From Mobula hypostoma (taxonomy: Eukaryota), in contig NC_086097.1 of NCBI RefSeq assembly GCF_963921235.1, positions 53,942,001 through 54,006,000 of the forward strand: a DNA stretch of 64,000 bases. The letters are read 5' to 3'. Made by a program: the position numbers and the translations under genes. The notes beneath the pieces were generated by a model, which searched no databases, was not told the origin of the DNA, and saw only the letters and a program-made list of their open reading frames with translations. Below, one piece after another: positions 5,087 through 61,356 of the stretch (position 1 is its first letter; each line of letters opens with the position of its first letter).

Positions 5087-5817
5087 CAGACATCCCACCC
5101 TGCAAAAACTGATTTCAGGGAAGTAGCACCACCGATTTGTGAGAGACTGCCAGGAGAGGTGGGATGTCTGCAATAGAGTAGCTCCTTAGCAGCCAGCCAG
5201 CTAGTTTAAATAACGTTAGCTATGTTGATGAACGAATGACACCTGTTAAACTCACCTCAACATGTCTTTTACAGTCTTAACCCACCATGGGCAATAGAAA
5301 AGTCACTGTTGCAAACAGTGCAGCGAGCAACACTGTCATTATTTTTGACCCTTATTAGGCAGGGGTACACTTTAGTGTAGTCTGGGGTGTTGTACGTTTT
5401 ATATTTTCTTTTTTTTTGGAACACTCTGCCATGGCGTGTGCTCACGCTCTTGCTTGCTTTCTCTCTCGCGCTCTCTCTCTCTTTCTCTCGCACGCACGCT
5501 CTCGCTTGCTTTCTCTCTCACACTCTCGCTTGCTTTCTCTCTTGCTCTCTCTCTCGCTTCCTCTCTCACGCTCTCGCTTGCTTCCTCTCTTGCTCTCTCT
5601 CTCGCACTCGCACTCTCTCGCTTGCTTTCCCTCTCGCTTGCTTGCTCTCTCGCTCTCTCTCTCTCTCTCTCACGCTCACTCTCTCGCTTGCTTTCTCTCG
5701 CTCGCTCGCTCTCAAAAAAATTGATTTCCGTGATATTGTATATAATTTGCAGGCATCAGGGAGCCGCTATTCATATGCGGGAGACTCCCGGAACTTCTGG
5801 GAGAGGTGGGATGTCTG
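5087..5817 (-). mobile_element. Non-autonomous TIR DNA transposon (hAT-like) with BED-finger remnant
   Basis: 13-bp TIR CAGACATCCCACC (5087-5099) / GGTGGGATGTCTG (5805-5817). 6-bp TSD CTTCCC (5081-5086, 5818-5823). Minus ORF ARCTVCNSDFSIAHGG continues after a frameshift as DCKRH. Confidence 0.8.
5440..5712. repeat. Compound (CT)n / CTCGCTTGCTTT low-complexity array inside the transposon
   Basis: Repeated ctcgcttgctttctctct units seen directly. Confidence 0.9.
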
Positions 5818-7644
5818 CTTCCCGACACCGTATTCCATCTGCCACTTCTTCGTCCATTTTCCTAATCTGTCTAAGTCCTTCTGTAGCCTCTCTACTTCCT
5901 CAAAACTGCCTGCTGCTCCACCTCTTTTTGAATCATCCACAAACTTGGCCACAAAGCCATCAATTCCATCATCTAAGTCACTGACATATAATGTAAAAAG
6001 AAGCAGTCCCAACACAGACCCCTGTGGAACACTACTTGTCAGCCTTCCTTGTGTCATCCTGCTTTTAGAATACTTCTCCCTCTTTAGGATGTATATATCC
6101 TGCTCCTTGCAAATTGGTCCTAGAAATACCAGCCATTGCTGCTCTGCAGTCATCCCTGCCAATGTTTCCCCCCCACCAGTCAATTTTGGTCCTATCTCAT
6201 GTTTCTATAATTTCCTTTACCCTACTGTAGCTTCTCCTTCTCAGACTTCAGGGTGCATTCTATCATATTATGATCACTGACTCCTAAGGGTTCCTTTACC
6301 TTAAACTCTCTTATCAATTCTGGTTCATTACACAACATTTAAGAAGGAAACATGAGTAGCATTGATTCCTTGCAAGAGAATGTATTGAATTTTTGGATGA
6401 TTTAATATTGACAAAGGTATGCACCTGCTGTTTTTACTCAACATGTTATGAATAAGGTATATTTTTGAAGTTAAAAATATAAATTCTTCATAAAATGCAG
6501 TCTCACCAGGTCAGAAAGCTATAAAGTTGATAGATATCTAATCGCTTCCTGTCAAATAGATAATACATAACTTCCAATCTTCCCTAAATGTGAATTTGGA
6601 TTCCCAGATTATTTACAAAATGGATTTGTAAATTGGAATTCTGCTACAGTATAATTGTATATACAGGTTTCTGGAATTACTGTGTATTTCAGGAATAGGA
6701 TGGCAACAAATTAATTCAAAATATTCAAAATGGTATCATGCTCCACATCTCCCATTCTACACATAAATCACTTTAACCTCAAGGGGACCCTACTTTGACT
6801 TTTTTCCCTTAAATCTGAAGACAGAGACATCCTAAATTCTTAAACACATATCAATTATTTTCACAGTTGCTCTTCAACCAAAGAGAAGCATGTTTTGAGA
6901 CAATGGTTTAAAAATACTATTGGCCCCCTGTGCAAAATAAGATGTGGAAGGGAGAAGGAGGCTAACGTCGGGAAATGCTCTACACCAATATCTATAAGTA
7001 TACTTAGAAAATATCCTTGGACCAAACAAATTCTATGGTTCTCTGCTGACTACTGGTACACTACCCTAAGGATATAGATGTGTAAATGTGATCCGTATGT
7101 GACCATAAATCAGTGGTCAAACTTTTATTGTTGGTTTCATTGAACATAATAGGTAATTAGAAGTAAACTGGTTTATAAATCAAAGAACTGCAGATGCTAG
7201 AAATCTGGAATGAAATCTGAATTTTCTGGAAGCTGACAGCAGACCAGGCAGCATCTGTCAAAAGAGTAACAGATGCAATAGTTCAGGTCAGATTCCCTTC
7301 ATCACAAGCTACTTGACCCCTGAGGGTTAAAGATCACCCTAATGTTATTTTCATCCAATGTTCACGCATATCAGCAAGTGAATGACTGCTTAATGATCAA
7401 AAGCAAGTATAATATAAGTCAACTGTTTTCCTTCCCCAGAATTGAGTGTTAATGCCAGTCAACTTTATATTAACCAAAAAAATTGTGTTTAATTCCGAAA
7501 AAAAACTCAGCTCCAGGACTATGTTTTCAATTTTCTGATGTGATTGGATAAATTGATACTGAGCAGAGGAAACTGCCGATTTTTAATGAGATCTGCTCTT
7601 TCAGATTTATAACCAAGGCTCTTTTTCCCCACCCCCCCACCCCC

Positions 7645-10654: not shown

Positions 10655-11995
10655 ACAAGTGCTGACCAGCTGGCTGGTGTGTTCATGGATATCTTCAACC
10701 TCTCGCTCCAGCAGTGTGTGTGGTACCCTCCTGCTTCAAGCCAGCTTCAATCATACTGCTACCTAAAAAGAGTGCGGTAACCCGAATAAATGACTATCAC
10801 CCAGTGGCACTTACATCCACAGTGATGAAGTGTTTTGAGAGGTTGATGCTGAAACAGATCAGCTCTTGTCTAAGTGGTGATTTGGATCTGCTGCAATTTG
10901 CCTACCAGAACAGGTCCACAGCAGATGCCAATTCATTGGCTCTTCACATAACCGTGAAACATTTGGGCAGCAAAGATGCATACATCAGGATGCTCTTTAT
11001 CAATTACAGCTCAGCATTTAATACCATCATCCCCTCAAAATTAATCAGTAAACTCCAAGTCCTGGGCCTCAATACTTCCTTGTGCAATTGGATCCGGGAT
11101 TTCCTTACTTGCAGAGCCCAGTCAGCTCTGATTGGCAAAAACATCTCCTCCATGATCTCCATCAGTGCAGGAGCACTACAGGGATGTGTGCTTAACCCCC
11201 TGCTCGACTGTGTGGCTAAGTACAACTCCAACACCATATACAAGTTTGCTGATGACACCACTGTTGTGGGTCATATCAAAGGTGGTGATAGTCAGCATAC
11301 AGGAGGGAGATCGAAAATTTGGCTGAGTGCTGTAGTAACAGCAGCCTCTCATTCAATGTCAATAAAACCAAGAAACTGGTTGTAGACTTCAGCAGGGGGA
11401 AACCAGAGGTCCGTGAGCCAGTAATTATTGGAGAATCAGAGATGGAGAGGGCGAGTAACTTTAAATTCCTGGGTGTCACTAACTCAGAGGACCATGGTCC
11501 TGGAGGATCGTTGTTTCGCTTTTACTGTGTACTGTACCAGCAGTTATGGTTGAAATGACAATAAAAGCGACATGACTTGACTTGACTGTCCTGGACCCAT
11601 CATATAAATATAATTGCAGAGAAAGCACAACAGCACTTCTGCTTCCTTAGGAGTTTGTGGAGATTTGGCATGTCATCAAAAATCTTGGCAAGCTGCCATA
11701 GATGTGTGGTGGAAATTGTGCTGACTGGCTGCATTATGGTCTGGTATGGGAACACCAATGCCTTTGAGCAGAAAATCCTACAAAAGGTAGTGCATTCGGC
11801 CCAGTACATCATGGGTAAAACCCTCCCAACGACTGAGCAAATCTACATGAAACATTGCCGTAGAAAATCAGCATCATTCAGCACAGATCCTCACCACCCA
11901 GTCCATGCTCTTTTCTCATGGTCGCCATCAGGTAGAAGGTACAGGTGCCTTAGGACTCACACCACGAGGTTCAAGAGTAATTACTACCCCTCAAC
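10655..11995 (+). mobile_element. Rex1/Babar LINE RT remnant with a small nested LINE tail at about 11490-11585
   Basis: ORF 10714-11385: [47 protein letters not shown] 11655-12137 carries the C-terminus. Frameshifted. Confidence 0.9.
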
Positions 11996-12144
11996 TTCAA
12001 GGGAGAACTACACCTATTCTATTTCTGGCATTCCCACAAACGCTGGTCTCACTTTAGGATCAAAATCAGGTTTATTATCACCAGCATGTGTCGTGAAATT
12101 TGTTAACTCAGCAGCAGTAATTCAATGCAAGACATGATAATGTA

Positions 12145-21039: not shown

Positions 21040-21575
21040 CTAACACACACAGAAAGCTGGAGGAACTCAGCAGGTCAGGCAGCATCTGTGGAGAGAAATA
21101 AAAAGTCAACGTTTTGGGCCAAGACTCCTCATCAGGACTGGAAAGGAAAGGGGGAGGAGGAAAGAAACCAGAATGGGAAGGTGGGTGAGGGGGAAGTCGT
21201 ACAAGGAGTGCGGGACAGTGAATGGGTGGGTGGATGAAGTGAGAAGCTGGGAGGTGAGAGGTGAAACCAGGTTTGGGGGACAGTGAGTGGGTGGGTAGAT
21301 GAAGCGAGAAGCTGGTAGGTGAAACCAGGTTTTGGGGACAGTGAGTGGGTGGGTGGATGAAGTGAGAAGCTGGGAGGTGAGAGGTGAAACCAGGTTTGGG
21401 GGACAGTGAGTGAGTGGGTGGATGAAGTGAGAAGCTGGGAGGTGAGAGGTGAAACCAGGTTTAGGGGACAGTGAGTGGGTGGGTGGATGAAGCGAGAAGC
21501 TGGTATGTGAAACCAGGTTTGGGGGACAGTGAGTGGGTGGGTGGATGAAGCAAGAAGCTGGGAGGTGAGAGGTGG
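21040..21575 (-). mobile_element. PLE 3' tail with hammerhead motif (21104-21140) and an internal tandem expansion
   Basis: Minus strand reads cagtcctgatgaggagtcttggcccaaaacgttgact plus the shared tail. Confidence 0.8.
21212..21575. repeat. Minisatellite, about 6 copies of a ~56-65 bp unit
   Basis: Unit gggacagtgagtgggtgggtggatgaagtgagaagctgg(gaggtgaga)ggtgaaaccaggttt repeated head to tail. Confidence 0.92.
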
Positions 21576-23494
21576 AAGTGGCTTGGTGGCAGCACTGCAG
21601 CCAAGGTGTCAGAAATGATAGAGAATAATTCTTTAAATGCAGAGGTCAGTGGGGTGAAAGGTGATAGGTGAAAGGTATCCCTTCCATCGTTCTGAAAGGC
21701 AGCAAAAGAGGCAGATGCAAAGGAACAGAAAATGAAACAGCACAGGACACCATAAGCAGGGCAAACATTCTGAGTTAAAAAAAAATTGCTTTCAAAAATG
21801 TATAATGTAAAGAAGAAAAGAAGCAAAGAAAATTGAAATGTTTCATGTTTATGCGCTTTGCCAGAACTGGAAATCATATTCTTGACTCATAATCCCCAAA
21901 AAGATTTATGAAAAGCAAAGGCAATAAAGAATAGTTATGTTTGTGGTTACATAACATCTCACCCCACATTTTAAATGAGCTGTTTTTGAAGTGTTAAAAG
22001 TGAAAACATGAACAGCTCAGAACCGTTTTTATACTTAGTGTGCTGTGTATGAAGTGCTATAGTAAACTAGATAGTTCAAAGCCCGCTGAAAGATACTACT
22101 GAATCCAACAAAGCAGAGGTACATCAACAGATATCCGACTGAATGATCTATAAACTCAACAGCAATCAGGTTGGTATCCAATTTCAACTTATAAGAGTAT
22201 TCTTTGATAAATATTAACCTATAACTAAGTACTTTTAATAAGTGTACTTCTAACTAAGTGGACTCAGTGTGCATGTACAATATGCAGGAAGTTTAATTTC
22301 TCCACTTTCACATCCACGACAGAACCAGAGAAAACACGTACCTCCCTTGCCAATGGCCATTTATTAATCACTTGAATTCTCTCACATTTAAGGAGACTTC
22401 CCAAGTGGTAGAATACACCTTCCGGTGCTACTTAGACACATCTTCAGTGATGAACCCAGGGTCATAGGGTGTTTCGGGCCTTTAATCATCAGACAACAAG
22501 TGTGTTTTAAGTCTTTTGATGGTGTGTGTGAATGGAACACTTTACAGCATTCAAGTGTAGTTCTGCAGAGCTCCATTAAAGTGAGCCCATTTTCACTCCA
22601 TTTTATAAACCTAGCTAATTAGCCCATTAGGTGACAAGTAATCAACAATTGATGTAGGACAAATACCACAATGTTACTGTACAATCTAAGCTGTAGTCAC
22701 AATTGGTTGTCTACTGTCCAGAGTTGTGTTCACGCCCATTTTTAAATTAACACCTCATTAAATGGTGTCAATTGTTTTCATATTGTTCTGATGTCACCGG
22801 CCGTTGACAGGTGGATCTCGTCCAGCCAGTGACAAACTATCACCAAACAGGTTGAATTGTTTAAGACTAGTAAATCTAATTTTAGATTTAGCCCTTGTGT
22901 TTGTTACCTCTCGTCCTTGACACTGACAGGATCCCCAGTAGCGACCAATCCAATGGACAGACGTAGACAGTCCCTACAATATCATGCTCTGAAACCAGAA
23001 TGGAGAACTTGGTTCACCGTGACAACGAACAGATTCTATGATCTACAACTCACTTTCAAGGACATTTGACAACTCATGTTCTCAGTATTATTTTTATTTA
23101 CAAGCCTGTCTTCTTGGTGTTTCTCAGTCACAGTTTTTCCAAAATTCCTATCACATTTCTTTTTTCCTTGTAAATGCCTGCAAAAAAACAAATCTCAAAG
23201 TAGTACATCATAACATACATATACTGTGATACTGAATATATTCGGAACTTTGAACAGTGATTCCCTGTAGTGGTTAATTGTTGCTGATTTCACATCGGAG
23301 TACCTCAAACGTGTAATAGTCAAACTTCCACAACCAGCTGCTTAATTTGCCAGATCCAGATTGTCTGTAGTTTTCAGATACAGATTATGGGCAAAATTAG
23401 TTGTAGTCTCTACAGATTAAATCTTCCAACATATAAGCAGCCTTGGGTCTTTATCGTGCTAATATATCTTTGGTGGAAACATCCATTTGATGTA

Positions 23495-33501: not shown

Positions 33502-34340
33502 TCAGCGACACCCACATCCCTCTACAACCATCTCCTGATAGTTCTTCAGAACAACTTTATCGTATTCGTCCAAGTAGAGCATTGATATAGGGCTGAGTTC
33601 TGTAGGGACACAGCAAGCCTTGGGGATGTTGGAATTTACAGAATTTACAAGAGTTTGCACGATAGCGTGATTAGTAGAGTTCAGGTGATCTGCCAGTGGA
33701 AACGGGCAGTCCCCGTGACAGTAAAAAGCCTGGTAACCAGGCGGTGCCACTATCCAGTCATTCCAGCCCACGTCGCTGAAATCCACATACAGAGAGTGCC
33801 TCCTGCAGTGCGATCTGTTTTTCTTGCGTTTTTGGCCTTTGCTGCTACGTTTCACCCTCCGGACCAGAGCGTGTCCTTTGCCATCGTGACTGAAAGTTAC
33901 GAGCAAGGGTCTGAACTGGGACCAGTCGCCGTTCCGCTGGTGCAGCGACCTGCTAATCCTCACGTGCATACCTTGCCGGCTTTTCGTTTCGTTCAGGTTT
34001 ATTACCTCGACAGCCAGCCCGTGGTTGGGTTGTTTATGCAAAGTCCACCTCAGCACTGCCGGGCTCACGTCAAAGCTCTCCCATCGTGTCCTGTTCTGGT
34101 GGACTAGTCTGGTGTCTAGGAGTCTCGTGATGAGGTCGCCCTTCTCGCTGGGGGTTCTCATGATTTCATAAACATTGATGCGGTGGAAACCCTCGTTCCA
34201 GTTCAAAACGGTGTCGATTTGCTCTCGGTACAGCCTCAGTTCTGCCGACGACAGCACCTCATTCTCGGGCACCGCGCTGATATTAAACACAAAACGAAGT
34301 TGGGTGCCTTCTCTCTGTCCTGGCATCAGCTCCAAGTGTT
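33502..34340 (-). CDS. BMP4: BMP4 last coding exon (prodomain, furin sites RISR and RVKR, 114-aa mature TGF-beta domain at 33846-33505)
   Basis: Acceptor tctggaacag|AA restores GAA-CAC-TTG (EHL). Seven-cysteine knot [25 protein letters not shown]...VVEGCGCR followed by TGA. 352+839=1191 nt = 396 aa plus stop; intron is 606 bp. Confidence 0.97.
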
Positions 34341-34946: not shown

Positions 34947-35298
34947 CTTCATGGTGGAAGCTCCTCACGGTGTTGGCCCGACTGGTGGATCTCTCGGGAT
35001 ATTCGAAGCTGATGTCGTGGGTGACCTCGTCCCCAGACTGGAGTCTGTAGAGATCCAGCATGTACTGGGGAACCACGGCAGATTTACTGGGCTGCGGGCG
35101 CCGGTGGAGTCCGAACATATTGAGTAAAGTGGCCTCGAATTCCCGCAGCAGTTCATGGTTTTGCGGAGAGCGACGTCCACCCGCCTGGTTTTGTTCCGCA
35201 AACTTTTTCCTTCCTTCCTCTGGTATTAGACTAGCACTACCTCCCAGTAAGACTTGGCATAATAAAATTACCATCAGCATTCGGTTACCAGGAATCAT
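34947..35298 (-). CDS. BMP4: BMP4 first coding exon (signal peptide and N-terminal prodomain)
   Basis: Translates [20 protein letters not shown]...[11 protein letters not shown], the BMP4-type N-terminus. Acceptor ttccgcag|AGACACCATG (exon starts 35305). Donor GAAG|gtactg with GT at 34946-34945. 352 coding nt, phase 1. Confidence 0.97.
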
Positions 35299-35952
35299 GG
35301 TGTCTCTGCGGAACAAAACAAGCAACAACAGAAAAAAAAGAATGAGAATTAAGAGCGATCTTCAGCAATCCACGCCCCAGAAAGAGAGCGCACGACACAG
35401 AAACAGAGAGTGGGAGAAGAGGTGTAATTACTTGGTCTCTCTCGGTTACAGTTAAATAGCCCATAATCAGGCAGATAGCACCATCTTGTTACTCTTTGTG
35501 TTTTCACTATCTTAGTAATTATCTTGGGCTGGTTTCTTTAGGAGCGACACAGAAAGTCTGAAACGGGCATCTTACCAAGCGGCCCATAATTGTTGAGAAT
35601 GGTGGTGATGGTATGATGTGTGGGTGTGTGTGTGGTGGGGGGGGGGTAACATTCCTGAAGTGTTAAAATCGTTTTACTTTGATTGTGTACACTTTCACAT
35701 CGAACAAGTTGATTATCTCCAGTCTATCGGTACATTTCCTTAATTGCTTATTGACAACCAAGGCACAAGTGCAAAAGCCATACTCTCACCCAACAGAGAG
35801 CTACAATTAATCATGCAGGAAATGATCGCAAGTACATGCTACAAGAGAAATCAAATAAATGGTTAAACACACACATATTTTTAGTGTACAAACAAATATA
35901 AATAAAATCCCACCACAACCCATTAGGAAAAAGTATAAAAAGTTCTACTCAC

Positions 35953-36130
35953 TGACAGAAAACAAGGCAGATGAAAACAATCCATGATTCTTGACAGCCG
36001 ATCTTGGACAAGTTCTTGAAAAGCTCGGGGACTCTGGAGCTGGCCGCTCGGCTACGTATTATCGAATCCCTCCTGGAACAACATTTGAATATAATGAGCA
36101 GTCTCAGCTTCCTCTCCGCGACGTCAGCCG
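35953..36130 (-). other. BMP4: BMP4 upstream 5'UTR exon (5' end uncertain)
   Basis: Strong donor TTTTCTGTCA|gtgagt at 35952. Splicing to 35305 gives TTTTCTGTCAAGACACCATG, which matches the mammalian BMP4 5'UTR as I recall it. Intron 35306-35952 is 647 bp. Confidence 0.85.
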
Positions 36131-36420
36131 GACCCAGCCCTGTTGCCAAACCCACACACAGGCTCCGCCCTCCCACCAATCACACGCGCCCGTCCCGCCT
36201 CAGCTACCAATCATGAGCGCCGGCCTCTTCCCATTTCAATCTACATTGCCCGTCAGTCAGAGAGCATGCGAAAGCTCCGCCCCTCGCAGTGATTTCCGCG
36301 GTGGGCGTAACCAGGGGAGGAGCCTGCGCTAACTGTCAATCAAAGCCATGTACTGAGCGCCGAGTTCGTGAAGCCGCAGCCGCACGCTGTGGGATGCCGC
36401 TCAGCTGAACGGGAGTTGGA
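36000..36420 (-). promoter_or_regulatory. CpG-rich BMP4 promoter region
   Basis: Local CpG excess in a CpG-poor window. GC boxes CCGCCC at 36165 and 36277, CCAAT at 36176 and 36207, CRE-like TGACGTC on the minus strand at 36120-36126. Directly upstream of the UTR exon. Confidence 0.75.
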
Positions 36421-39624: not shown

Positions 39625-40639
39625 TGTTCCACGGGGGTGCTGGTAGGCGGACCCAAAAGCAAGACACAGACACTGAAGTTCTAGGAACAGGACTAGGTTT
39701 GTCAAGAAAGCAAGGTCAGTCAGGAAGAAACAACGCTGGACATTGACACAGGCCCTGGACGAGACTAGGATTCAGGGCCTGAGCTAGGACTCGGGCTAGA
39801 AGCACGGGACCCAGACGTGAACTAGGAACAAGGAGCCTGGACTAGGAACACGGAACTCCAGAACCAGAGTCTGGACAAGGACTCAGAAACCCGGGTCTAG
39901 GCTGGGTCTTGGGACTAGGATCTTGGCAAGGACAGGACAGGACAAGGAACCTCCAGGGCAGGATGTGGCTCTTGAACTAGGTTTGGCTCAGCTCTTGGAC
40001 TCGGCTTGGTTAGGCTTTTGGGTACAGAGCCAGGACTGCTCCTTGAAGTGCAGGGCCTGGACCCTTTCTAGGACAGGGCCAGGATGACTGCTGCGGTAAA
40101 CTGCCAAGGATTTGGATGGGGATGATCCAGCACAGGATGAGGAATCTCCAGCACCAGGCTGGGCGAGGACATGAAGCTCAGACTTGGACAGGGCTGGAAC
40201 ATGTTGCCTGGACTAGGTCTTGGAACACAGAAACACAGAGCCTTGGACTTGAGCATGGGAACAGGGAACACAGAGTCAGGACCCCTCTTTGGGAACAGGA
40301 CATAGGGCTGGGACTCGTACACAGAACACGGACACTAAACACGGGGACACAAAGAGACAGTTACAAACTCAATGATAGATAGTTCCTTCTCTTGGCGTGG
40401 CAAGGCTCCAGTCTCACTTTGGCAGTTGAACTGAGAAGGTTGCAGAAGGAAAGGGGAAGGGAACAGTCCAGCAGGGAATCCTTGGTTTGAGAGGTATTTA
40501 TGTGCCAGCCTAAAATGAGAATCAGGTGCCTCAATTAAGGCATCCAATAGAACAAGGCAAAAACAGGAAAACCCGGAATAAGGAATTGACAGACTGGATG
40601 GTGAACCAGAATGCGGACTTCACGGACCAGACCATGACA
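39625..40639 (-). mobile_element. Solo LTR (about 1015 bp)
   Basis: TG...CA termini (TGTTCCACGG ... CCATGACA) and a 5-bp TSD GTTTT (39620-39624, 40640-40644). TATA-like CATAAATA on the minus strand near 40500. Internal GGACTAGG/GGACAAGG sub-repeats. Strand is inferred. Confidence 0.8.
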
Positions 40640-41055
40640 GTTTTATTGCCCCAATACTGCCATCAATTCCTTCCAGGTTGTTTCACTCACTCTACACATA
40701 TTTGTGAGTTGAGAGTTAAAAACAACAGTTATCACTTCAATTTCCACCATTTGAGGCAGAAATAACTATCTTTTATGGTGCTAACGTCATTACAAGCACA
40801 ACAAGCATTGCAGAAATCCCAGCCTTGCTGAAGCAAATTTCACTCAGACTTACCCAGTCCAATTTCATGATGAACAGTATTATTGTCAAGTAATATTTGC
40901 TGCCTTGTTAAAATAAGTTTAAAATACCTTTGATTTTTCATTTCTGCATAAAACCAGTACAAATGTGTCCATTAACACACACAAAATGCTAGATGAACTC
41001 AGCAGGTCAGATAGGATTGATAAAGGTAAATCAACAGCTGATATTTTGGGCCCAG

Positions 41056-42868
41056 GTCCCTGCTGCACCTAGTGACCCTATGATCTCCGTCTCAGAGGCC
41101 GATGTTAGGCTGTCTTTAGAGCGAGTGAACCCTCGCAAGACGGAAGGTCCCGATGGAGTACCGGGTAAGGCTCTGAAAACCTTTGCCAACCAATTAGCGG
41201 GAGTACTCAAGGGCATTTTCGACTTCTCACTGTTGTGGGCGGAAGTTCCCACTTGCTTCAAAAAGGCAACAATTATACCAGTGCCTAAGAAGAATAATGT
41301 GGGCTGCCTTAATGACTATCGCCTGGTAGCAGTCACATTGACAGTGATGAAATACTTTGAGAGGCTGGTTATGACTAGACTGAACTCCTGCCTCAGCAAG
41401 GACCTGGATCCATTGCAATTTGGTTATCTCTATAATAGGTCAATGGCAGATGCAATCTCAATGGCTCTCCACATGGCCTTAGACCAAAAAGACAACACAA
41501 ACTTTCTTGCTTTCAAGAAAGAGATGGATAGAGCTCTTAAAGATAGTGGAATCAAAGGTTATGGGGATAAGGCAGGAACTGGATCCTGATTGTGGATGAT
41601 CAGCCATGATCACAGTGAATGGCGGTGCTGGCTCGAAGGGCCGAATGGCCTACTCCTGCATCTATTGTCTATTGTCAAACACCTACGTCAGGATACTATT
41701 CATCGACTATAGCTCAGCATTTAATACCATCATTCCCACAATCCTGATTGAAAAGTTGCAGAGCCGGGGTCTCTGTACCTCCCCCTGCAATTGGATCCTC
41801 AACTTTCTAATCGGAAGACCACAATCTGTGCGGATTGATGATAATATCTCCTCCTCGCTGACTATCACCTCAGTGGTGTGTGCTTAGCTCACTGCTCTAC
41901 TCTCTATATACACATGACTGTGTGGTTAGGCATAGCTCAAACACCATCTATAAATTTGCTGATGATACAACCATTGGTAGAATCTCAGATGGAGACAAGA
42001 GAGTGTACAGGAGTGAGATATACCAACTAGTGGAGTGGTGCCGCAGCAACAACCTGGCACTCAACGTCAGTAAGACGAAAGAGCTGATTGTGGACTTCAG
42101 GAAGGGTAAGACGAAGGAACACACACCAGTCCTCTTAGATGGATCAGAAGTGTAGAGAGTGAGCTGTTTCAAGTTCCTGGGTGTCAAGATCTCTGAGGAT
42201 CTAACCTGGTCCCAACATATCGATGTAGTTATAAAGAAGGCAAGACAGCCGCTGTACTTTATTAGGAGTTTGAAGACATTTGGCATGTCAAGAAATACAC
42301 TCAAAAGCTTCTATAGTTGTACCATGGAGAGCATTCTGACAGGCTACATCACTGTCTGGTATGGAGGGGCTACTGCACAGGACCGAAAGAAGCTGCAGAA
42401 GGTTGTAAATCTAGTCAGCTCCATCTTGGGTACTAGCCTACAAAGTACCCAAGACATCTTCAGGGAGCGGTGTCTCAGAAAGGCAGCTTCCATTATTAAG
42501 GACCTCCAGCACCCAGAGCATGCCCTTTTCTCATTGTTACCATCAAGTAAGAGGTACAGAAGCCTGAAGGCACATACTCAGTGATTCAGGAACAGCTTCT
42601 TCCCCTCTGCCATCCAATTCCTAAATGGACATTGAATCTTTGGACACTACTTCACTTTTTTTTTTAAAATACAGTGTATGCAGTATTTCTGTTTTTGCAC
42701 ATTTTAAAACCTATTTAATATATGTATACTGTAATTGATTTACTTATTTATTATTCTTTAATCTTTTTCTCTCTCTGCTAGATTATGTGTTGTATTGAAC
42801 TGCTGCTGCTTAGTTAACAAATCTCACGTCACATGCCAGTGATAATAAACCTGATTCTGATTCTGATG
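41056..42868 (+). mobile_element. 5'-truncated Rex1/Babar LINE with (GATTCT)n tail
   Basis: ORFs 40993-41589, 41606-41887, 41880-42155 and 42159-42584 carry Rex1 RT motifs. Ends gataataaacctgattctgattctga. Confidence 0.92.
41503..41675 (+). mobile_element. CR1 3' end nested in Rex1
   Basis: FKKEMDRAL...GIKGYG and tail gggccgaatggcctactcctgcatctattgtctattgt, flanked by a CAAAC duplication. Confidence 0.8.
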
Positions 42869-60490: not shown

Positions 60491-60829
60491 ACGCAATCAT
60501 ATGGATAGTACCCCATGAATACCTTGACCCTATGGCCCCAGGGATAATATCTCGTCCCACTGAATCCATACTGGTTCTATGTCGAGCAATCCATTCAGTA
60601 CCAGATACCTTGGCTCCCCCCCCCCCCACCCTCAGTAGTCCTTTGAACATCTTTCCTTCAATATCCAATTCTCTATTGAAGACCATGATTGACAGCATCT
60701 ATCACTCTCACAGGCAAGACTTCCAACTTACAACAATGTCTGATTAAATTTGTGCCCTTGAACCATCTTCTAATGGAAGCAGCTTCTGTTTTTGCTCCCA
60801 GCATTACAAGCCAAGGTTCCCCAGTTTGA

Positions 60830-61356
60830 TGGAGGAGCTGAAACCCTTTAACATCTGCTGGACGATGTTGAGGATGTTCTACGAGTCTGTGGTGGCCAGT
60901 GCGATCATGTTTGCTGTTGTGTGCTGGGGCAGCAGGCTGAGGGTAGCAGACACCAACAGAATCAACAAACTCATTCGTAAGGCCAGTGATGTTGTGGGGA
61001 TGGAACTGGACTCTCTGACGGTGGTGTCTGAAAAGAGGATGCTGTCCAAGTTACATGCCATCTTGGACAATGTCTCCCATCCACTACATAATGTACTGGT
61101 TGGGCACAGGAGTACATTCAGCCAGAGATTCATTCTACCGAGATGCAGCACAGAGCATCATAGGGAGTCATTCCTGCCTGTGGCCATCAAACGTTACAAC
61201 TCCTCCCCTTGCAGGGTCGGACACCCTGAGCCAATAGGCTGGTCCTGGACTTATTTCCTGGCATAATTACATACTTAATTATTTATGGTTTTATTATTAT
61301 TTATGGTGCAACTGTAACGAAAACCAATTTCCCCCGGGATCAATAAAGTATGACTA
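60830..61356 (+). mobile_element. Rex1/Babar LINE 3' end (young subfamily)
   Basis: Open C-terminal frame MFYESVVASAIMFAVVCWG...HPLH...SFLPVAIK and tail gatcaataaagtatgactat. Confidence 0.85.

Follow-up and report, generated by a model that had tools for sequence, protein, structure and literature searches.

The BMP4 locus analysed here lies on the minus strand of a 64,000-nucleotide (nt) stretch of the Mobula hypostoma genome (contig NC_086097.1, positions 53,942,001 to 54,006,000; the window). The coding exons encode a 396-residue BMP4 identical to the public devil-ray BMP4 (P0141). They are preceded by a leader exon that carries an upstream ATG (uATG), and by putative promoter-like motifs adjoining that exon (Table 1). 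N-terminal extensions in gene models from Narcine, Scyliorhinus and Callorhinchus match the ray leader exon from 36071-36074, and the human counterpart of the exon would measure 125 nt, as coordinates in two Table S1 entries (PMC10032668) suggest.

Table 1 Elements of the BMP4 locus, in window coordinates
Feature	Position	Strand	Remarks
GC boxes; reverse CCAAT boxes (two); CRE-like motif	36282, 36170; 36212, 36181; 36126	-	motif names are presumed
Promoter-like motifs, adjoining the leader exon upstream	36120..36282	-	motif matches only, putative
Leader exon carrying the uATG	35953..36072	-	120 nt; acceptor TTCCAG/G
uATG with strong context	35982..35988 (ATG 35985-35983)	-	A at -3, G at +4
uoORF codons 1-11	35953..35985	-	33 nt to donor; human block also 33 nt
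Tandem donor GTCAGT (candidate in the ray)	35951..35956	-	4 nt upstream of major donor; exon end GTCA/GTGAGT
Major donor GTGAGT	35947..35952	-	used by 21 main-frame read-through models
Intron inside the uoORF	35306..35952	-	647 nt; acceptor AG ends 35306
BMP4 first coding exon	34947..35305	-	359 nt
uoORF codons 12-17 and TAA stop (35287-35285)	35285..35305	-	human block also 21 nt
BMP4 main ATG	35296..35298	-	A at -3, A at +4
In-frame Met7 and Met9, possible secondary starts	35272..35280	-	4 and 10 nt after the uoORF stop
BMP4 last coding exon, coding part	33502..34340	-	completes the 396-aa protein

A spliced upstream ORF that overlaps the BMP4 start

In the major splice form, the uATG lies 40 nt from the main ATG and out of frame with it, and its reading frame ends at a stop 14 nt beyond the A of that main start. 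An out-of-frame AUG in the leader, the lack of any stop before the coding sequence (CDS) and a stop inside the CDS place this 17-codon frame in the uoORF class. In unspliced RNA, the frame of the uATG stops inside the intron after 20 codons. Support for the major junction comes from 21 public proteins whose main-frame sequence runs across it, and from a human catalogue entry. The uoORF stop lies 338 nt before the next downstream junction, and with this spacing decay of the major splice form is possible. An out-of-frame overlapping ATG arose in 42.6% of 5,000 dinucleotide shuffles of the 120-nt exon, and a strong-context one in 4.2%. Because shuffles often yield such an ATG, its mere presence is weak evidence, and the case depends on conservation.

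Two further open frames adjoin the uoORF. A second short ORF (36084-36052, minus strand; 10 codons, weak context) shares its frame, starts 12 nt upstream of the leader-exon acceptor and would be present only in transcripts from the adjacent promoter-like region. The main frame, spliced across the major junction, contains no stop in the 78 codons that precede the BMP4 ATG (36180-35298, minus strand), and many gene models take this stretch as an N-terminal extension of BMP4.

The human orthologue is already catalogued. In the GENCODE Ribo-seq ORF set (Table S1, PMC10032668), c14riboseqorf37 is a BMP4 uoORF of 17 residues in blocks of 33 and 21 nt; its peptide is identical to that of the ray at 14 of 17 residues, with differences only at residues 4-6, and its intron measures 1046 nt, as against 647 nt in the ray. 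The two thus agree in gene, length, block split and overlap class. The human orthologue is translated, as this Ribo-seq entry records, and the uoORF as such is not new. The row assigns it to the class 'conserved', with PhyloCSF values of +6.95 in primates and -16.30 in mammals and 0 mass spectrometry (MS) studies. This class holds 758 of the 7264 ORFs, and CDS-overlapping ORFs are called conserved more often for their overlap alone, at about 30-35% of uoORFs and intORFs (PMC10032668, main text in part). The row covers mammals and primates and gives no function; conservation in cartilaginous fishes and the in-frame donor described below are not in it. The preliminary description of this DNA had proposed the 17-codon spliced uORF together with a human BMP4 peptide that it marked for confirmation. 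On re-reading the sequence, we found all of its coordinates, context, donor, stop, 14-nt overlap and 17-residue translation correct; the human peptide that it gave was confirmed by the Table S1 row (PMC10032668), and the proposed conservation to human, with the same length and the same 33+21 split, extends across jawed vertebrates.

Conservation of the uoORF in jawed vertebrates

We read conservation from gene models whose N-terminal extensions cross the leader exon, in whichever frame. The sample comprised 378 stored proteins, drawn from the best 120 of 202 matches of one search and from clusters with up to 15 listed members each; 324 of them have a BMP4-type N-terminus among the matches listed. 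Sixty-two proteins carry at least 13 residues before the BMP4 Met. With the Trp (W) column left unscored, 21 of these 62 match the ray leader exon in the main frame with scores of 28-55, the next best scoring 13. The remaining proteins include a divergent Arapaima BMP4-like protein (P0109), the 22nd with Trp at -13, and 40 that were set aside: one uORF-frame model and others that resemble intron read-through or other exons. The read-throughs come from chimaera, shark, skate, ray, coelacanth, frogs, turtle, marsupials and teleosts.

The start and its context are retained throughout this set. Trp at -13 in 21/21 read-throughs implies the TG of the start and the G after it at the unchanged spacing of 40 nt. 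The W in 22/22 main-frame read-throughs, Arapaima included, forces G at +4 of the uATG, and E or Q stands at -15 in all 22, forcing a purine at -3. There are no indels in the 22 read-throughs. Seventeen proteins whose models begin at this Met, together with the human row, prove the A of the uATG; the residue before W is S, T or P, whose codons are four-fold degenerate and compatible with this A in all read-throughs, and in teleosts, coelacanth and turtle the A is therefore only presumed. Strongly diverged as it is, the Arapaima protein retains Trp at -13 and Met9, and its residues 4-5, Gly-Lys, are compatible with the stop.

The uoORF stop is directly seen in the ray and in human. At residue 5, the 324 listed BMP4 proteins have N (299), S (24) or K (1), each of which permits TAA or TAG in the overlapping frame; 25 BMP2 N-termini have V, R or T there. 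Start, frame and stop thus appear to be kept, the stop being compatible in 324/324 listed proteins; the restriction of residue 5 to N, S or K is only suggestive of this, because the T of the stop falls on a wobble base and signal peptides carry constraints of their own.

The uoORF also evolves more slowly than its flank. On a 22-leaf parsimony tree, whose topology we assumed, changes were counted at positions 2 and 3 of the uORF codons, as read from the overlapping main-frame residues. By this count there were 19 changes in uORF codons 2-9 versus 44 in the 8 codons upstream (p = 0.002), although the upstream columns were ungapped and the upstream rate may be inflated. The invariance of TG and the following G has p of about 0.0003 against the upstream rate and about 0.06 against the rate of the uORF body. 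Third positions inside the uORF are likewise more conserved than those upstream, which pure start/stop constraint does not explain.

Other searches gave null results within their scope. No stand-alone uORF-frame peptide was found among candidates of 23-74 aa. A search of shorter proteins (47 matches among 48 candidates) contained neither the 12-residue form described below nor a read-through of the leader exon. A metagenome scan with a 19-base motif returned two matches, both bacterial chance matches: by eye, one contig (L001) seems to carry an enolase-family gene beside a dehydrogenase and the other (L002) is ATP synthase operon-like.

Several gene models follow other splice routes. In five placental BMP4 models (P0082, P0189, P0190, P0193 and P0195), the leader exon is read in the third frame and leaves by the same donor, and the junction falls inside the first coding exon, skipping Met1, Met7, Met9 and most of the signal peptide. 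In P0002, P0012, P0060 and P0159, another upstream exon is joined directly to the first coding exon and the uATG exon is skipped; if real, this skipping would offer a third way round the uoORF, and these models may also be prediction errors. A horn shark BMP2 isoform X1 (P0372) carries a 16-residue extension ending in CFQDT, like the end of the BMP4 main-frame read-throughs, which may come from a read-through intron or be the vestige of a leader junction common to BMP2 and BMP4.

A tandem donor that could bring the uATG into frame

Two GT dinucleotides lie 4 nt apart at the end of the leader exon (GTCAGT at 35956 and GTGAGT at 35952), forming a delta-4 tandem donor in which GTCAGT has one mismatch to the GTRAGT consensus (PMC1779574, excerpt). 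Splicing at 35956 would set the uATG 36 nt from the main ATG and in frame with it, adding 12 residues to BMP4. Five GT sites lie between the uATG and 35948; of these, 35956 alone gives an in-frame uATG, and the frame is then open through the exon. The resulting 12-residue form is present in 17 of the 324 BMP4 proteins among the matches listed: chimaera (two entries), five sharks, five frogs, two wall lizards, two bird entries and one possum. In Heptranchias, Scyliorhinus torazame, Chiloscyllium plagiosum and Trichosurus, X1 and X2 models stand side by side and together use both donors; such pairs in that annotation pipeline usually reflect read support for both junctions. The extension leaves the hydrophobic core of the signal peptide unchanged and shifts the charge ahead of it from +1 to -1, and the targeting of the longer form may differ.

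The form is absent from batoids, with 0/15 members of the batoid cluster (including the protein identical to that of the window) and 0/2 Narcine entries, from the listed teleost, turtle and snake entries, and from the 15 listed of 486 placental-cluster members. The G of the upstream GT is invariant at chance level only (4 invariant third-position columns, 4.1 expected), and the teleost R at that column would imply a weaker upstream donor, with G at +4.

Other delta-4 donors share the pair of GTs 4 nt apart, with one GT supplying the +5/+6 GT of the other (PMC2423196 and PMC8055015, excerpts; yeast HEH1, PMC12830679, excerpt). Some 94% of the donors studied fall within coding regions, where the shift leads to a premature stop (PMC2423196, excerpt). 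In the BMP4 pair, by contrast, it is the minor form that would free the main ORF, with the major form repressed.

These observations raise the tentative alternative of a splice-controlled switch, in which regulated donor choice would decide whether the strong AUG diverts ribosomes (major form) or starts a 12-residue-longer BMP4 (minor form), the latter supplying a large and tunable share of the protein. Such a switch would add to a translational brake and would not exclude it. The unique frame of 35956 among the five GT sites, the exact extension in 17/324 listed proteins, the annotation of both forms in at least four species and the intact hydrophobic core argue for it. A small share of the minor form could also matter, since this form would be the unrepressed one: in a toy calculation assuming 10% leak and 5% use of the minor donor, it accounts for 34% of output (2-83% across the grid of assumptions). 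Against the switch, the 12-residue form comes wholly from automated annotation, and pipelines presumably show such forms only because the ORF gets longer. Tandem donors 4 nt apart are the commonest kind (PMC2423196, excerpt), and the minor site of a tandem pair is typically used less by a factor of ten or more and mostly reflects noise (PMC8055015, excerpt). The gaps in batoids and in the listed teleost, turtle, snake and placental entries, the chance-level invariance of the upstream G and the weaker teleost donor point the same way. In nine supplement files of PMC8055015 we found no BMP4; the catalogue there is a separate track hub, and our coordinate terms came from another assembly. We consider it unlikely that a switch as old as jawed vertebrates, in which a 4-nt donor shift turns a repressive uORF AUG into the most efficient start of BMP4, operates at this locus. 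If it did, donor choice would set morphogen output with the mature ligand unchanged, few transcripts would make much protein, and a regulated 4-nt donor would be a compact case of splicing reversing the sign of a uORF.

A probable translational brake on BMP4 and its alternatives

Under the established rules of scanning, most subunits are captured by an upstream AUG in strong context, and ribosomes that terminate beyond the main AUG can no longer start there. At BMP4, ribosomes scanning the leader would reach such a strong-context AUG 40 nt ahead of the main one, read 17 codons and terminate inside the coding sequence, so that they could not start at the main AUG. BMP4 would then be supplied by ribosomes that leak past the upstream AUG, with putative further contributions from transcripts spliced 4 nt upstream, in which this AUG is in frame, and from Met7 or Met9. 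Under this reading, selection would preserve the start with its context and spacing, probably also the stop, and not the peptide. The earlier proposal that the main ORF depends on leaky scanning is incomplete, because the 35956 donor fuses the uATG in frame with BMP4 and Met7 and Met9 lie close behind the stop.

Met9 itself is a weak lead for reinitiation. Among the matches listed, Met9 is present in 324/324 BMP4 N-termini and Met7 in 313/324; the neighbours of Met9 are nearly as constant (L8 in 319/321 and V10 in 318/321), and Met9 also occurs in 20/25 BMP2 N-termini.

We favour, as the probable reading, that BMP4 has carried a uoORF since jawed vertebrates arose and that this uoORF reduces BMP4 synthesis in cis, independently of the peptide sequence. 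This reading draws on the anatomy, the translated and 'conserved' human entry, the retention of the start in 21/21 read-throughs and the slower change of codons 2-9 than of the flank. It is weakened because the A of the ATG and the T of the stop are invisible in protein data, because the invariance of TG and G is not significant against the uORF body, because CDS overlap alone inflates calls of conservation and because the constraint on third positions is left unexplained. The repression, its size and its effect on BMP4 dosage are what we infer; a literature search found no reporter or mutant data on the BMP4 uoORF.

The constraint on third positions would fit an improbable alternative, that the exon is conserved as a downstream promoter or enhancer element, for splicing signals or for an RNA-binding-protein site, together with the signal-peptide codons, and that the uoORF is a tolerated passenger. 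The promoter-like motifs lie directly upstream of the exon, the conservation reaches upstream of the uATG (8/8 residues identical between ray and marsupial), and promoters and splice sites account for many hyperconserved leaders (PMC9456764, excerpt). However, out-of-frame AUGs in strong context are not neutral, and that of human is translated; the number of changes drops at the uATG (19 versus 44), and the 22 read-throughs contain 0 indels. The leader exon also lacks unusual RNA structure (z = +1.1): its fold is not more stable than those of shuffled sequences, 178 of 200 of which fold as well.

The preliminary description had further suggested a conserved micropeptide, to be checked by codon-level selection. 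We ran this check on protein-derived changes. In uORF codons 2-13, the 23 changes divide into 10 second-position and 13 third-position changes (test for a second-position deficit, p = 0.34), or 7 and 10 without the Arapaima protein. There is thus no synonymous excess of the kind that marks CPuORFs and micropeptides, at the low power that 23 changes afford, in agreement with the mammalian PhyloCSF of -16.3; nor has the peptide been detected, with 0 MS studies in the human row. With positions 2 and 3 changing alike, the micropeptide is unsupported: the start, its context, the length and some nucleotides look to be kept and the peptide looks incidental, as far as so few protein-derived changes can tell. 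That the 17-residue peptide is functional, whether released or stalling the ribosome as a nascent chain, is very unlikely: the ray-human identity of 14/17, the invariant M, D, C, P, C and L in the first ten residues of 17 models and the primate PhyloCSF of +6.95 speak for it, but position 2, where changes are always non-synonymous, does not change less than position 3 (mild constraint would still be possible at 23 changes), the mammalian PhyloCSF is negative and the MS count 0, residues 4-6 vary freely, teleost residues would imply loss of Pro and the second Cys, and the last residues are held by the BMP4 frame. A main-frame extension of BMP4 from a non-AUG start was also rejected, since 23 first- and second-position changes in 12 codons indicate no protein constraint.

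The brake reading places the BMP4 uoORF beside known systems. Overlapping ORFs (oORFs or uoORFs) of dosage-sensitive genes likewise start at a leader AUG, end inside the CDS and show constraint on structure without a protein signal (PMC11057154 and PMC13275300, excerpts). An oORF is predicted in 15% of human 5'UTRs (PMC11057154, excerpt), and many uORFs and uoORFs show ORF-structure constraint without amino-acid constraint (PMC13275300, excerpt). The BMP4 uoORF differs from this class in being traceable across jawed vertebrates and in that a 4-nt donor shift converts it to the class of oORFs that extend the main frame. With CPuORFs (PMC7530721, excerpt), it shares a short upstream ORF and a similar peptide across distant animals; unlike them, it has no synonymous bias. 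The CPuORF pipeline discards uORFs that are often fused to the main ORF (PMC7530721, excerpt). In a search of the literature, mostly excluding subscription papers such as the 1990s papers on BMP4 gene structure, we found no study of the BMP4 uORF, its conservation in cartilaginous fishes or the donor shift, and the ORF did not appear in 12 of 14 supplement files of PMC11452709 or 11 of 14 of PMC11473369.

BMP4 is a morphogen whose dose matters: loss of one copy causes defects of the eye, limb and kidney, and its expression level shapes beaks and jaws. Jawed vertebrates diverged about 450 million years ago. Most likely, the element described here is a real and ancient regulatory uoORF of a known class on an important gene. 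If the brake reading is true, a brake kept for about 450 million years would form a layer of BMP4 control invisible to mRNA measurements. The analysis names exact bases at which variants in the 5'UTR or near the splice site could raise or lower BMP4, and the uoORF would be a possible handle for obtaining more BMP4 from one working allele.

Elsewhere in the window, broken frames at 10666-12137, 40993-42155 and 60748-61266 (all plus strand) look by eye like remnants of reverse transcriptases, which we take to be of the LINE type. Tracts of low-complexity or degenerate repeats at 39700-40200, 5376-6280 and 21106-21645 give long spurious ORFs.
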